Below, piece after piece: positions 18,555-59,229 of a DNA stretch of 64,000 nucleotides. The position numbers and the translations under genes were made by a program. Below the pieces are notes generated by a model, which saw only the letters and a program-made list of their open reading frames with translations, did no database searches and was not told the DNA's origin. The DNA comes from Octopus vulgaris (Eukaryota), in contig OX597818.1 of the NCBI GenBank assembly GCA_951406725.2, positions 33,542,001-33,606,000 of the forward strand, given 5' to 3'. The stretch's first letter is position 1; each line of letters opens with the position of its first letter.

Positions 18555-21500
18555 AACGCATGGAAATCTCTGAAGGTGACCCACCCAACATCATTGCAGT
18601 GGCACTTAAAAGTAGTAATTTTTTCTAGAACTACAGCCCAGGTAGAGCGCAAAAAACACGAATTACTCCGTTCTTATTCTCTAATTAGACAGCATATAGA
18701 CACACTAGACCTCATCCTGGGAGGAAACTGCTCCAAGGATGACAGAAAAGAATGAAAGAAACCTCCAGAGCCCAACAATCCCTCGAAGGAAGAAAACAAA
18801 AGCCACGTCTGAGGGGCCTGCAAATGAGTGAAACAATGATACTGGTTCGGCCTCCATCACGCCAGAAGACCAAAGAGGTGTGAGAGCCGAAAGAAGAAAA
18901 TATGAAGACAAACCCAACAAAATAAAAGCTGTCAAAAGCAACGAAGAACGAAGAGTCAAAGAAAGGAAACAGGAGAAACAACCGAATATGCTGATACGAA
19001 ATGGAGGTTCCCCAACAGAAGCTACAGGAGTTGGAAGGGCAAAAGCAGGAACTCTTGCAAATTCTACCAGCAAGTACACTGCTGGTACGGTGCTGATGAT
19101 GCAAACTGTCGCTTTGCACACTGGAAGCCCTGCCAAAACCACATGGGCCCCAGACAACACTCCCTTCCCCGAAGAGGACAAAAGGAAAGGCACCAAAGTA
19201 GTAAAAATAGCACACTGTCTACTTCAGAAAGACAATATGCAGACGCAGTGCGCGGTCCAGCAAACGGCTAGCTTCATCCAGGTGTGAAAAGGGTGGCAGC
19301 TGAATAGCAATCTTTTATGTGCATGGCACAAAAGATTGTCCAGCATCTGACCTGGCTTCAAACCCAAGCCTAGAACTACGCCACCAACACCACCAACAGA
19401 TACAGGATGGCAACCACTAACACCAACACACACATTACAAAGATATATCTTTTGAATACAGGAGGGCTGTTACATGGCAACAGTAAATCAAAAATCTCAT
19501 TCCTGAGAGACCTTGCGACATGCAATCAAGCTTTATGCATGACACTTGTAGAAATGCATCTTAGACATGATATAGGGGATGCCACAATATGTTGTCATAC
19601 GCTCAAACAGAAAGGAGAGGAGCCATGGTGGAGTTGCTGTGTACATCCGAGAGGACCTCACGCCCTAGGTCCTGCTGTTATATTCTAATTCAGTGTGTGA
19701 CACTCTAATTGTACACATAAGACAACTTAATATTGTTATATGTACTACACATCGCCCACCAGATGCTCTGAGTCATACAGACAAATTTGAAGACTGCTTA
19801 GTAAAGATAGGAGAAGTTCTCATCAAACTGGAATAACACATTAATGTATTCCTTTTGGGTGACTTTAACATCCCAAACATAGAATGGAATGGTTTGGAGG
19901 ATAGATTCTCCCAGGAATGACACACCAACAGCAAACACAAGCAGAGTCCCTGCTCCAACTTACAAATCCCTCTTCCATGGAACAAAACATGCTGCAACCA
20001 GCCAGGGCAAATAATATACCGGATCTCAGCTTCACAAACAATATGGACATTATCCATAATGCTAAAGTGACACCGACGCTGATCTCGGATCACATTATAA
20101 TAGAACTGTCTATGTATGGACCAAAAGCTACTGCAGACATGCAGCCTATACGAAGCACCCAAAATCTCTCCAAACTAAACTTTCACAAAGTAAATTGGAA
20201 GCTGATTGAGAAAGAGATCCTCAAGCAGGATTGCCCTAAATGTCTCTCCACACCAGACATTGATATGAAACACAAACATTTCATGTCCATAATACAAGCA
20301 TTGTATGACAAATCTGTCCCATTGTGCAAGGCCAACATACACAAAAACGGGATCCCCAGAGAAATAAAAATTCTTATGAGACGATGGACAAAGATTACGA
20401 ACCGCCTGAGCAAGCATCCCAAAAGTGGCGATAAATCTCGTCTGGAGAGAGTGCTATTGGAAACTGAGAAATGCCTGCATCAGTCTCATGAAAATGAGAG
20501 AGCAGATAAAGAAGCTTTGTTTATAGAAAATATCAAGTCAAACTCTAAAGCCTTCTTTACGTTTGCCAATAAACACCCTTGATACGCCACAAGATAGGAC
20601 CCCTCTTCCAAAAAGGAAACCCCATGAGGGTAAGTGAAATATTGAACGAACAGTTCCAAAGTGTACTCACTATACCGCTGTAATACAGGCTAGTGAACAA
20701 ACCAGTGGAATTCTTTGACACATTACCTAAAACCAAAGAGGTTGGAAAAATTGAGTACATAAACATTGAAGAAGATGTAATTCTGGCCATAGATGAGGTT
20801 GACACAAACTCAGCGGCTGGCGTGAATGGGTTTCCGGCGTTCCTACTCAAATCATGAAGCATGCTCTTACAAAACCACAGCAGTTTTTCTTACAGAGCTT
20901 CAATGCAAGAGGTAAGCTCCTAGAGAAATTGAAGGAAGGAATAATATGCCCTATCCATAAGGAAGGAAGCAGAGCAGATGCTAAAAATTATAGGCCTATA
21001 TCTCTGACCTCATACATCAGTAAAGTCAAGGAACGAATAGTCCGCGAGTAACTAATCACATTCCTAGAAGAAAATGACTTGCTGACTGACACCCAGCATG
21101 GATTTCGTCCAGGTGGAAAATGACTCAAGTGTGGATGTAATATATCTCGACTTTGCAAAAGCCTTTCATAAAATTCACTATGGTATGATATGTCACAAAC
21201 TGCGCGATCTCGGCATATGCAGAAAACTTGGAGAATGGCTGCACAACATTCTAAAGGATAGACGTGAGACAGTAGTGGCAAATGGAGCCACCTCCAAGGA
21301 AACGCAAATTGCAAGTGGTGTTCCACAGGGCACTGTCTTGGGGCCACTGCTGTTCATAGTAGCCCTCTAAGACATGCCCTCGGCTGCTCAGCTAGCCACC
21401 CTTGCTAGGTATGCAGATGACACAAAAGTCTCTCAAACAGTACAAAATCCTGCAAATATTGCACATCTGCAACGGGAGTTGGACGCAATATACAAGTGGG

Positions 21501-32315: not shown

Positions 32316-32373
32316 TGACCAGTCAGTCATATGGAAACTCCATTTACACAGACATACGAGGGATATCTATATT

Positions 32374-32415
<42 letters not shown>

Positions 32416-32674
32416 GCTCTCTCTCCCTTTATATATATATACGCACATACAGAGAGAGACAGACAGACATACAGACAGACAGAGAAGTATAAAAGATGCT
32501 CACGCATATGTAAACTAGTTTTTTTATGAGTTTTTTTTATGAGTCGTGCACGTGAACCGGTCACATGAGCGATTAAAGCATGCACTTGTGCACGAAAAAT
32601 CAACTGCAGGCAATAGGATGTACACATTCAATATATTAGATCTACGCTCAGTAAAAGCTTTGAGTGGAAATATT

Positions 32675-32710
32675 GAAGTTACGTTTCGAGCACGGTTCTT
32701 CGTCAGAAAA
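32675..32710 (-). ncRNA. Minimal hammerhead-like motif
   Basis: Minus strand: CTGACGA-a-GAAC(cgt)GCTC-GAAA-CG-TA. Core intact; stem I poor. Confidence 0.55.
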
Positions 32711-32841
32711 AGAGAAAAATCAGAGAGGAGGAAATAGTTGAAGGAATAGTGCACGCGAAAAACAAATGTATTGTTATCTGGTCCAAAAATAACACACACA
32801 CGCACACATGAACACAAACAGGCACACACACATATAATACA

Positions 32842-32890
<49 letters not shown>

Positions 32891-33500
32891 CTGTGTGTTT
32901 GTGCATATTTATGTGTATGTGAATACATAAATATACACAGAGAGACACAGACACACACACACATATAAGTACATATATGTGTGTGTGTGTTTGTGTGTAT
33001 ATTTATGTACACATTTATATGCGTACGTGTATCTGTAACGATATGTATATGTACGTTTATGTAACTCCTGTAAATGCTTAAATGTTTTGTGTGTGTATTT
33101 ATACGTGACGGGAGATTGGAGGTCGTTGAATGCACTTTTGTGAACATAGGAGCTGCTTTTCATAAGTTACAAAAATATAATATATCCAAATCTATAACCC
33201 TAGTGTATAATATTAGAATTTTCCTAAACAATTATTGAATTAATTAATTTTGAAGTGAATGCTTAACGCAGTAATGTTTGCTTGTTTCTTTCTTTCTTTT
33301 TGTCTTTATTTATTGTGCACTTAGCTGGATCACACAGTTCACATACACGGGCATTGTCACATGTGCACATAATATTATCTATAGAAAAAACCATCTATAG
33401 TAAAAATACTAAACTACAAAGACACATATCCAAGCATAGAAGCAAATACACACACATACATACATACATTCATATATATATATATATATATATAATATTT

Positions 33501-45798: not shown

Positions 45799-47484
45799 CC
45801 AACAATAATGAGAACAATATCTTTTTCTTGGTCAGAAGTACCAGAGAAACGAGGACTGAGAAGAAGTTTTACACCGAGGAAGAGGTAAAATGAACGAGAG
45901 AGATATATCGATGAGTAATAGCAAAAAGTATAAAAATAACAAAACAGAACAAGAAAAATAAACCAGAAAATATGAATACGGCAACCACAAAGGTGACCTG
46001 AAGCGCGCCACACACACACACACAACCCTAACCCAAACCTGAAAGTAAGTGGTTAAATTCGCCTTGCACATAAGGATATAATTTCAGCTAATGATGTTGA
46101 TATTACATATCTCAATCACCTGTATTATGCTTCCGCGAAGATTTCAACGATTCTATGTGATGAAAAGATTAGAAAGCGAAAACATTCCCAGAAGAGTGTA
46201 TTCGACACAAAATTCAGCTACTAAGGTCTGACATAGAATGTTTAAAAAACCTTTAGTTTGACAAAACTATCAAACCCACAAAAATCCGAAAATTAAAGAA
46301 AAAGTATAATATAAAAACCATACTTGACATCGATACCACCATCGAAACCAACAAGCAAAATGTATGTGCTAAAGCTGCCCGCATATCACGATTTGAAAGG
46401 CACTTTTTATTCTTCAAGGACAACAACATGTTCAAAAATAACCCCATAAACTTTTACAGGAAGATAAGGAAAATACCAGTTAAAGTAAAGTATGTTCCAC
46501 CAAAAGAAGAAGTGCAGGAATTTTGGAATAAAGTTTGGGAAGAAGTAAAAGGGCGGCTTCGATTGATAGAATATCTACTGACTTAGACTCCTTAGAGGAG
46601 CAAAAGTGGGAGGGTATCAAGGTAGAGGATGTAAAATCTGCTCTCAGGAAGTCAAGCAAATGGAAATCCCCAAGAAATCCCCAGGAAAGGATGAAATTCT
46701 TAACTTCTGGTTGAATGCCTTCCCAGAGAGACATGAACTGCTAACAAAACTTTACAACAATGTTTTGCAACAACCTAGTATGATTCCCTTTTGGCTAATT
46801 AATGGTGTTATATTCCTACTTCCAAAAAAATGAAGGAACAATAACAACAATGTATAAATTTCTAACATCCCGTCTTGACTAAATATACCAAATTTTTTAA
46901 TAGAAAGTGGCATATTCTCTAATGTGCAAAAAGGATTTAAATGTTAGTCCTATGGTTGTAAAGATCAGATACTCATCAACAAGATGATCTTGGAAGATTG
47001 TCACACACGACGCAAAAATCTTGTCGATAGCCTGGATAGACTATAAAAAAGCTTTTGATAGTCTACCACATATCTGGATTAAGCAATGTCTGGAAGTGTA
47101 TAGAATTGCACCTTCTCTGCGAAACTTATTGTCTGTAAGTATGAGATCATGGAGAATGACACTGACTTTGAACAGTAACAATGAATCTCTCAATGCTGGA
47201 GATGTAAAAATTCAATGTGGAATTTTCCATGGTGACTCTCCATCACCAGTCCTCTTTTGTCTAGCCTTAATACCTTTCTCGAAATTGCTCGATGGTGTAC
47301 AATATTGCTATAAAATGTCTGATAAAAATATAAATCATCTCTTTTACATGAATGATTTAGAGCCCTTTGTGATAAATGACCAACAACTACAGGGATTACT
47401 AGCAATTGTTAAACAATTCAGTGATGACATTAGCATATGCCAATACACACAGACAGAGAAATTAAAGCGAATAGGCCAGATATA

Positions 47485-47697
47485 CAGTTCTATATTTAAG
47501 AGATGAGGAACTATGTACATTATTTAATATATAATAATAACATCAACAACAACATCGAAAAATACCTTAGAAATGAGAACCCAGGTTCGAAATTTCCCCA
47601 AGACACCTGATGAAGGCTAGAGGGTATATCAACCGAAACGTTGTGTGTTAACAACAAACAAGATGAGGACAAAATCCGTCAAAATGTAAATAATGTA
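47485..47697 (+). mobile_element. About 213-bp hammerhead-containing insertion inside the R4/Dong element
   Basis: Interrupts the NRPDI|VV coding run. Flanked by AATAGGCCAGATATA (47470-47484) and AATAAGGCTAGATATA (47698-47713). Confidence 0.8.
47603..47646 (+). ncRNA. Minimal type I hammerhead ribozyme
   Basis: ACAC-CTGATGA-a-GGCTAG...CAACC-GAAA-CG-TT-GTGT. Intact core, AACGTT palindrome, imperfect stem II. Confidence 0.7.
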
Positions 47698-48127
47698 AAT
47701 AAGGCTAGATATAGTTGTCAGAGGTCATGAAGAAAAAAATGCTTTCTAATTGTTGTATCAATACCAGCTGATGACAAACGTTTCTCTAAAAGAAATGGAG
47801 AAACTTTCAAAATAAAAAGACCTGGAAATAGAGGTAACTCGAATGTGGAATCTAAAAACAGAAACAATTCCTATCATAGTGGTTGCATTAGCTATGATAA
47901 AAAAATATTCAGACAAATACATAGCAAAAAAACACCAGGACTTACAAATATATATAACATACAGAAAATTGCACTAGTGGGCACTGCACACATCCTACGC
48001 AGAACACTTTCAATACAGTAACCATAAGAGCATCACAGCAAACCACAGCATATACCCAAGACACACAGAGCTGCGCTCGGTAGTGAAATGAAAGCACGTT
48101 ATAAAAATAAAACTACCGAATAATAAA

Positions 48128-48696
48128 TATAGATGTTTACGATCTAATTGGATTCTTTGCCGTCAAATTGAATTATTTGCAATCAAATTTGAATTTTTCA
48201 ATTGGTGCTCAAGCCTTGAAAATAAAGAGAGTTAAACTACATCAGCCGTAAGGGAATACATGTCTATCTTATCTAACTCATCCAGTAGAGCCCACTAATT
48301 GATATCTGAAAAGTTCGATGAAATAACTCATGAACACTGCGATAGCTTCTACCAAAAGATGCTCCGTTACGTCGACCGGTCTGACAAGGGAAGATAATAG
48401 AAAAATAATCATTCGTTTATGATCTCCCCTTGTTCAGATCGTTCGATGTAACGGAGCATCTTTTGGTAGAAGCTATCGCCGTGTTCATGAGTTATTTCAT
48501 CGAACTTTTTAGATATCAATTAGTCGGCTCTACTGGATGAGTTAGATAAGATAGACATGCATTCCCTTACGGCCGATGTAGTTTAACTCTCTTTATTTTT
48601 TTTCAAGGCTTGAGCAGCAATTGAAAAATTCAAATTTGATTACAAAGATTTCAAATTTGCTGGCGAAGAATCCAAACTAGATCGAAAACATCTATA
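48128..48696. mobile_element. Foldback MITE, about 570 bp, with about 270-bp imperfect inverted arms
   Basis: Starts TATAGATGTTT and ends AAACATCTATA. Arms are complementary throughout, e.g. TAGCTTCTACCAAAAGATGCTCCGTTAC versus GTAACGGAGCATCTTTTGGTAGAAGCTA. TA at both termini. Confidence 0.9.
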
Positions 48697-57889: not shown

Positions 57890-58143
57890 ATGTATGTATA
57901 TATGTATATATACATACACACATACACACATAAATACATCCATATATACACATACATATTCATATACATTCATATATTTACGTACTTTATGTAGTGTACA
58001 TGTGTGTGCATGTGTGCGTGTTTGTGTGTGTATATATATATATATATACATGCACACACACACACACACATATGTGACCGCGTGTGTACCGTTGGCGATT
58101 TTTTTCCTCTGTCTTCCCTTCTCTGGATCTTTCCTTCTCCTAT

Positions 58144-58178
58144 GTTTCCGACGAAGAGCTCCGCTCGAAACGTTAAAC
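58144..58178 (+). ncRNA. Minimal type I hammerhead-like motif (U4C core)
   Basis: GTTT-CCGACGA-a-GAGC(tcc)GCTC-GAAA-CG-TT-AAAC. All stems pair. Confidence 0.65.
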
Positions 58179-58274
58179 CCTCCTTCTTCCCTTCTTCCCT
58201 GAGCGTCCAATAATACTATACCTGTTCCACGTCCTCGCGTTGTAGTGTTTTTCTTTGTGCTTTCATGTTTGGAT

Positions 58275-58316
<42 letters not shown>

Positions 58317-58459
58317 AAGATTTTATAGTTTGCTTGAAGCATTCTATATGGAATATACTGTTAAAGGATTTAAAATGCCAAACACAATGCAAATAGATTT
58401 TAAGATGAAGTAACGTAAACTAAAATGAAGTTACCTGGTAATCTTTGGTCGTATATATA

Positions 58460-58502
58460 TATCCAATATTTCGGGACATACAAGTCCCTTCTTCAGGAGA
58501 TA
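58460..58502 (-). ncRNA. Minimal type I hammerhead ribozyme
   Basis: Minus strand: TATCTC-CTGAAGA-a-GGGAC(ttgtat)GTCCC-GAAA-TA-TT-GGATA. Intact core, 5-bp stem II, AATATT palindrome. Confidence 0.7.
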
Positions 58503-59229
58503 AAATAATTCTGTGATTATATATACTTGTGTCTGTGTGTGCGTGTGAATGAAGACCAAACGGAAATACTGTTTCAATGCTAATTGAGATATAATATTCG
58601 GCTGGACGCAGACAATTTCCGTAAATTGTTAGTCTGAGTCTGAAGTGAAAAATAAGGCAAATTAATCTATTAGGAAGATTTTAACAATGTAAATAACTTT
58701 TGTCATCTACTTGCTCTCTTTCCGATCGTCACTCTCCAGCACCTCTTCCTCGCCCCGATCTCTCGTATTTTTCATTCCTTATCTTTCCTTCTATTTTTTC
58801 ATTAACTTATAGACGTTTTTTCATTTTATTTAACTTTCGTTAATTTTTGGAGGTAATTGTATTTATTTCCAAACGTATGGTGTTTCTACTCCGAATGAGC
58901 CTTCCATAGATCTTATCATTTTGACTTCTATTGCTTCCGATATATTTCCTAATATTCCATTTTTGCATGTGCACTCGCGTACGTGCATATATGCATACAT
59001 ACATACAAATATCCACTGACATACATACGACTGTATGTATGTGCATACACACACACACACACACATACACACACACACACACATATGATAATTATAATCC
59101 CATATATATCGAAAAGATTTTCATCAACCGTTTTGATGATTAAACCAGTGAAATTTCGGATATAATAATCACTTTTGAAAATTAAGATATCCCCGCATTG
59201 ACTTTGTATACACACACACACACACACAC

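Follow-up and report, generated by a model that had tools for sequence, protein, structure and literature searches.

A hammerhead-bearing insert in an octopus R4/Dong-like LINE as a probable remnant of a 5'-truncated Penelope-like element

The reading frame of a LINE in the genome of Octopus vulgaris is split by a short stretch that carries a hammerhead ribozyme motif, which raises the question of what kind of element made this insertion, and by what route it entered its target. The locus was analysed within a window of 64,000 nucleotides, to which all coordinates refer. It was compared with related proteins and with four public runs, all available as contigs, out of 24 listed, bearing three species labels.

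Host LINE, empty site and target-site duplication

The LINE that received the insert is a dead copy of the REL type, interrupted by stops and frameshifts and lacking about 1.1 kb through an internal deletion; we take it to be R4/Dong-like. Its 5' part, delineated by tblastn at 46191–47484 (+ strand), comprises a decayed RT region followed by the beginning of the endonuclease domain as far as the motif ANRPDI and may extend upstream beyond 46191, while the 3' part at 47714–48126 (+, tblastn) contains the remaining REL endonuclease and the 3' UTR, so that an RT with a C-terminal REL endonuclease is present. Four long relatives (P0005, P0007, P0008 and P0013) matched the host at 31–39% identity in tblastn, covering 46191–47437 and 47702–48015, and the RT piece at 47021–47428 gave 23 protein matches of 40–61% identity, all with RVT_1. 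The internal deletion was deduced from the spacing between SDDI and NRPD, which was 373–384 aa in all seven relatives measured compared to about 40 nt in this copy; its junction lies at 47431–47437 (+), after SDDI and before PIHTDREIK. The order of RT and PD..D endonuclease is common to the host and the R4/Dong-type REL LINEs, as is the (TAA)n 3' end, into which other copies run on past 48126 (loose end behind 48126, run X6), whereas the frameshifts and the internal deletion set the host copy apart.

Several other repeats were observed in the window. A second, more distant RT remnant is present at 20929–21469 (26–38% identity, tblastn), and a repeat translating as QSRPRRNL... occurs at least eight times on both strands between 2437 and 35242 (incidental tblastn matches), being likely an abundant short repeat. 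A 20-bp tandem follows directly 3' of the host LINE at 48142–48202, while 48140–48310 and 48500–48690, including the region around 48600–48660, appear by eye as long inverted arms, possibly of a MITE. A joint from 48126 to 47551 links a LINE 3' end to the (AAT/AAC)n tract of the inserted element.

The host frame ends with ANRPDI at 47484 and resumes with VVR at 47714, the endonuclease motif being split between them, in full agreement with the coordinates given in an earlier sequence-only reading of this DNA. The insert is 213 nt (47485–47697) or 217 nt (to 47701) long and is flanked by a 12-bp target-site duplication, with the left copy at 47473–47484 (+) and the right copy at 47702–47713 (+), identical in 11 of 12 bases with a single C-to-T difference in the right copy. 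An imperfect duplication of about 15 bp had been proposed: a duplication is indeed present, in the form of the 12-mer; the longer version (15/16 nt, with the left copy at 47470–47484) requires one indel and one substitution. A match of 11/12 within ±3 nt arose by chance in 36 of 20,000 random draws, the small number with places less than 30 nt apart being left out. The right boundary lies at 47697 or at 47701–47702, because the element and the host share a few bases there, and the claim that the host sequence defines the boundaries precisely has to be relaxed by these 4 nt.

The empty site was found both in proteins and in DNA. Among the 23 relatives, 11 were without the endonuclease motif, and in all 12 reaching it the second Asp motif followed 14–16 aa after N(R/K)PD, without the insert. 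A joint from 47477 to 47707, skipping 229 nt, was present in two of the four runs (two contigs each) and was not seen in the other two among the joints listed (15 of 327). The loose ends before 47707 consisted of LINE upstream sequence in all four runs, and the loose end behind 47484 in run X6 was the downstream continuation of the host LINE. The former carried C at the position of the C-to-T difference. Both duplication copies have G (47475 and 47704), whereas A is the consensus among the loose ends of other LINE copies; such a shared G would fit duplication of this copy's own target, although a subfamily variant would look identical. These observations support entry of the insert into a pre-existing LINE copy, as the sequence-only reading had it; the segment, whose presence there would have spoken against an insertion, is missing from the uninterrupted LINE both in the relatives and in the runs. 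The locus is a record of a past transposition, not of current mobility: with one mismatch in the duplication and a decayed helix II it was read as an old event, and its earlier presentation as direct evidence of mobility went too far.

Inverted arm, one-sided tail and hammerhead motif

The insert begins with a 42-bp inverted arm at 47485–47526 (- strand), composed of the element 3' end and a tail of 27–31 bp that has no counterpart in the forward arm. It is followed by the inversion junction with an AT-rich (AAT/AAC)n tract at 47527–47553 (+), and by the forward arm, a 5'-truncated pseudo-LTR-like fragment at 47554–47701 (+), which was delineated by run depth and by its matches to P0025, P0028 and P0037; its left end is approximate and its right end ambiguous between 47697 and 47702. 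The 11-mer at 47516–47526 is the reverse complement of 47687–47697, as had been noticed before, but this is only a part of the inverted arm with its tail; the complementarity itself extends to 15 nt (14/15) at 47512–47526 and 47687–47701. The left arm was identified as the element 3' end with a 27–31 nt tail because of an opposite-strand joint from 47526 to 47673, found in all four runs with 11–21 contigs each, and because in P0028 from O. bimaculoides the forward arm is directly followed by the reverse translation of 47524–47483 (12/14 aa identical). The loose ends behind 47526 had continuations that differ in other copies. Among the loose ends listed (24 of 3372), long, heterogeneous and AT-rich ones lie before 47482 (three runs) and behind 47702 (run X2), pointing to two defined termini. 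Joints from 47673 to 47574 and to 47602 possibly reflect a head-to-tail arrangement of element copies in tandem.

Inverted 5'-truncated copies and one-sided tails are described as typical of Penelope-like elements (PLEs; PMC8557442, PMC8969392), the former having a tail of 30–40 bp (PMC8557442). Here the tail is restricted to the inverted arm, and its 27–31 bp match the lower limit of that range or fall slightly short of it. The inverted 5'-junction copy at 47485–47526 and the short target-site duplication are both features of EN+ PLEs, while the EN+ PLE ORF (telomerase-like RT and GIY-YIG endonuclease) is absent from this fragment. For the partial tandem by which EN+ PLEs place two pseudo-LTRs around their ORF, the joint from 47673 to 47574 in run X5 is a possible head-to-tail candidate. 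Pen2/Pen2a of A. vaga (PMC3846280) and the EN+ PLEs of Craig et al. (PMC8557442) share with the insert the inverted 5' arm, the one-sided tail of about 30 bp, the target-site duplication, a pseudo-LTR (pLTR) of about 200 bp with an internal frame start and a non-LTR element as the target. For the A. vaga Penelope, PMC3846280 gives pLTRs of 218 bp, a 31-bp tail, duplications of 8–10 bp and an ORF start inside the pLTR, and mentions one Penelope inserted in a non-LTR element. In contrast, only a pLTR fragment with an inverted arm of 42 bp is present here, and the duplication of 12 bp exceeds 8–10 bp, which counts against a truncated PLE. Two termini bounding the tail, an AT-rich target and a hammerhead near the ORF start are also found in Poseidon of Anolis (PAc; PMC11167929), in which, as described there, the ORF starts at helix II, while in the insert the ATG is located 34 nt before the core.

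The hammerhead is a minimal type I motif at 47603–47646 (+), with the core bases CUGAUGA at 47607–47613, an extra A at 47614, GAAA at 47635–47638, CG at 47639–47640 and UU at 47641–47642; this placement predicts a cut after 47642, the position expected previously. A descriptor composed after the motif had been seen gave this single match in the window and none in 200 shuffled windows. Three of the four marks given in PMC4209133 for PLE minimal hammerheads are present, namely the extra base after A9, the G10.1-C11.1 pair and the palindromic 15.2–16.2, the fourth being covariation. The core bases agree with the description as a minimal hammerhead with intact core, while the helices do not: in helix II only three of the first five pairs are formed and two are broken, the motif does not pass a descriptor demanding four of five, and a stable helix II is lacking. 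The 3' strand of helix I, moreover, contains a duplicated 2-nt stretch. The hammerhead-shaped fold had an energy of +0.3 compared to -6.3 kcal/mol for the minimum-energy fold, and the folding z values were 0.80, 0.29 and -0.86 for three stretches. Rfam produced no match at gathering over the window, and its eight weak matches at E up to 10 over 47400–47800 included no hammerhead.

In most other copies position 47619 was G (about 95–97% of the depth in all four runs), by which one of the broken pairs in helix II is restored; this restoration is known for 47619 only, 47632 not being included among the variant rows listed (40 of 163). The 2-nt helix I duplication, at 47642, was absent in 98–103 contigs per run, and from about 73% of the depth in three runs and 11% in X2. 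The broken helix II is read as decay of this copy, whose hammerhead is, judged by its pairing, probably dead. The minimal hammerheads in metazoan PLE pseudo-LTRs (Cervera and De la Pena, 2014; PMC4209133) have the same core and marks, no helix III and a helix I of 4–5 bp, the broken helix II being the difference of the present copy. They are presented in PMC4209133 mostly as single motifs ascribed to truncated PLEs, and cleavage is reported there as absent for a single motif and weak for dimers.

Minimal-hammerhead motifs are common in this window, since a relaxed descriptor detected four of them compared to 0.003 per shuffled window (300 shuffles). The three further motifs, at 58148 (+), 58496 (-) and 32706 (-), belong to other families and all have the extra A and the palindromic dinucleotide; the motif at 58148 contains C in place of the core U4, and that at 58496 forms helix II as a perfect 5-bp stem. 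Repeat scans around these sites (57950–58750 and 32350–32950) were dominated by microsatellites.

Abundance, other copies and octopus gene models

The summed contig depth over the insert reached 0.4–7.8 million per bin in all four runs, with 37–85 for single listed contigs; as a sum over contigs it is not a copy number, but it indicates a very abundant family, probably with tens of thousands of copies. Other copies were found translated in three named records, P0025 from O. sinensis, in which 23 of the first 25 aa were identical to the element frame, and P0028 and P0037 from O. bimaculoides. Absence of other genomic copies, which the sequence-only reading had named as a possible refutation, was thus not what was observed. 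In the O. vulgaris genome PLEs account for 6.83%, with 190 families (PMC13282606 supplement), and both PLEs and Dong-R4 are described as abundant in octopus (PMC13282606, PMC8967140). Exact DNA patterns of the element had no match in the metagenome, viral or prokaryotic collections, and neither did P0028 in viral contigs. Three metagenomic loci retrieved with P0028 were all unrelated on inspection.

A parent ORF with RT or GIY-YIG could not be linked to the element by protein searches with its frame, which led to no more than host gene models, brief translations and matches that were weak or repetitive (one match from four candidates, five matches, and two matches from three candidates). Pfam detected no RT or GIY-YIG in any of the six proteins scanned (P0025–P0030), and the sole domain of P0037 is PF09068. 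The candidates P0026 and P0027 were discarded as repeat artefacts, and P0029 and P0030 as weak look-alikes, perhaps from other hammerhead families. A literature search for octopus and hammerhead ribozyme returned nothing on this insert family by title or abstract; the family may already be present in Repbase, Dfam, the O. vulgaris repeat library or the supplementary alignments of PMC4209133.

The forward arm includes the start of a short frame (MRTQVRNF...) at 47573–47647 (+), broken here by a TAG stop at 47618–47620 and a frameshift, while in another copy it is open through the hammerhead and the tail, forming the continuous frame of P0028 (51 aa). This frame is possibly the N-terminus of the parent ORF. 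The stretch 47573–47690 of the element was also encountered at or near the N-terminus of two RefSeq models, O. sinensis LOC115224785 (P0025/P0031/P0033) and O. bimaculoides dystrobrevin beta X1 (P0037). Both models leave the element at the same codon, adjoining a GT at 47685 that could, from its position, serve as a splice donor. P0032, the O. vulgaris member of the LOC115224785 cluster, has a different N-terminus. It is conceivable, albeit doubtful, that a very high-copy and possibly non-autonomous PLE family has its hammerhead pseudo-LTR repeatedly recruited as a spliced 5' exon, placing a minimal ribozyme in host mRNAs.

Origin of the insert and route of insertion

Taken as a whole, the insert is probably a heavily 5'-truncated copy of an EN+ PLE, reduced to its hammerhead-bearing pseudo-LTR and inserted in a LINE copy. 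This corresponds to one of the two origins suggested by the sequence-only reading, an extremely truncated Penelope with an inverted end, which fits best, while for the other, a short non-autonomous retroelement, the absence of a linked parent ORF is the observation that bears on it. We are highly confident that the insert behaves like a PLE insertion; as for its parent, a non-autonomous family is a possible alternative to a truncated autonomous element.

This alternative assumes a non-autonomous family of fixed length derived from a PLE pseudo-LTR, either a mini-PLE or a retrozyme-like monomer, which would be transcribed independently and mobilised in trans by the protein of a PLE; the chemistry would be the same as for a truncated PLE with a different parent, and we regard it as a rather unlikely origin. 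It would accommodate the very high depth over a short stretch combined with the missing parent ORF, and the joint from 47673 to 47574, with a depth of 1587 in run X5, could be a head-to-tail tandem. Moreover, pLTRs in cis are reported to be enough for an element to be mobilised in trans (PMC3846280), and animal retrozymes to derive from pLTRs and to occur as monomers (10.64898/2026.07.22.740005). The animal non-LTR retrozymes (PMC7229834, 10.64898/2026.07.22.740005) are, like the insert, short, low in GC, hammerhead-bearing, non-coding and PLE-related, but they are described as tandem units of 150–450 bp with mostly canonical type I hammerheads, while the insert is a monomer whose hammerhead is minimal and whose tail is inverted. 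Expression as circular RNA is a further trait of non-LTR retrozymes. There was no tandem unit at the locus and no second copy of the insert in the 64-kb window, and the frame of P0028 is open through the tail. Inverted-arm joints to 47591, 47648 and 47682 suggest variable truncation instead of a fixed length, with two to three contigs each and sides of 21–26 nt making this a weak sign.

For the truncated PLE, a two-primer route of insertion can be proposed from the geometry of the arms. According to PMC11167929, a PLE protein cuts and extends both strands at AT-rich sites, two internal RT start sites bound the tail and hammerhead cleavage is not required. By analogy, the GIY-YIG endonuclease of the PLE would make one nick per strand in AT-rich DNA, with a distance of 12 nt between the two. 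The 3' end at the bottom-strand nick, on the left edge of the 12-mer, would prime RT at the inner start site and give the forward arm ending near 47701, while the top-strand nick on its right edge would prime at the outer start site, located some 30 nt downstream in the element, and give the 42-nt antisense arm with the tail, beginning at the tail end, that is, as the sequence from 47485 onwards. The two short cDNAs would then be joined head to head, with gap filling producing the duplication. The hammerhead would be a passenger: without helix III it would require a second copy to fold, and in this copy it has decayed. A literature search combining Penelope and 'twin priming' gave no title on PLEs.

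A different sequence of events, which would change the mechanism but not the identity of the element, starts from a full head-to-head palindrome, made for instance by self-priming, from which most of the left arm was deleted later. Palindromic inverted junctions are reported as common in A. vaga Penelope and read there as self-priming (PMC3846280), and the host LINE copy has another large deletion. Yet in element coordinates more than 130 nt separate the inner end of the inverted arm (corresponding to 47687) from the forward-arm 5' end (about 47530–47555), and the two arms are not joined by a palindrome, although a later deletion could have removed it; two-strand priming, furthermore, has been demonstrated in vitro for one PLE (PMC11167929). 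We consider such an original palindrome improbable. Finally, a tRNA-type SINE or a recombination or double-strand-break repair patch, with chance duplication and a chance hammerhead, is largely refuted by the tail and the inverted arm and hardly credible: SINEs make up 11.7% of the O. vulgaris genome (PMC13282606 supplement) and a B-box-like 9-mer lies at 47585, but this 9-mer is at chance level (20/100 shuffles), strict Pol III A and B boxes, a tRNA or tRNA-like head and a poly(A) or simple-repeat 3' end are absent, and neither the hammerhead nor the duplication is easily had by chance in the shuffles and draws given above.

The truncated PLE at this locus is an insertion of a well-described kind and has little significance alone, except that it illustrates known PLE anatomy cleanly: with the empty site fixed by the reading frame of the host, the duplication, the tail and the inversion are readable almost to the base. 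It would gain greater weight if nested copies, collected genome-wide, separated the two mechanisms proposed for PLE inversions; the many nested insertions of this family would allow two-nick priming to be tested against self-priming for the PLE tail, in vivo and at base resolution. If the recruitment as 5' exons proves true, the same family would supply ribozyme-bearing first exons to octopus genes.
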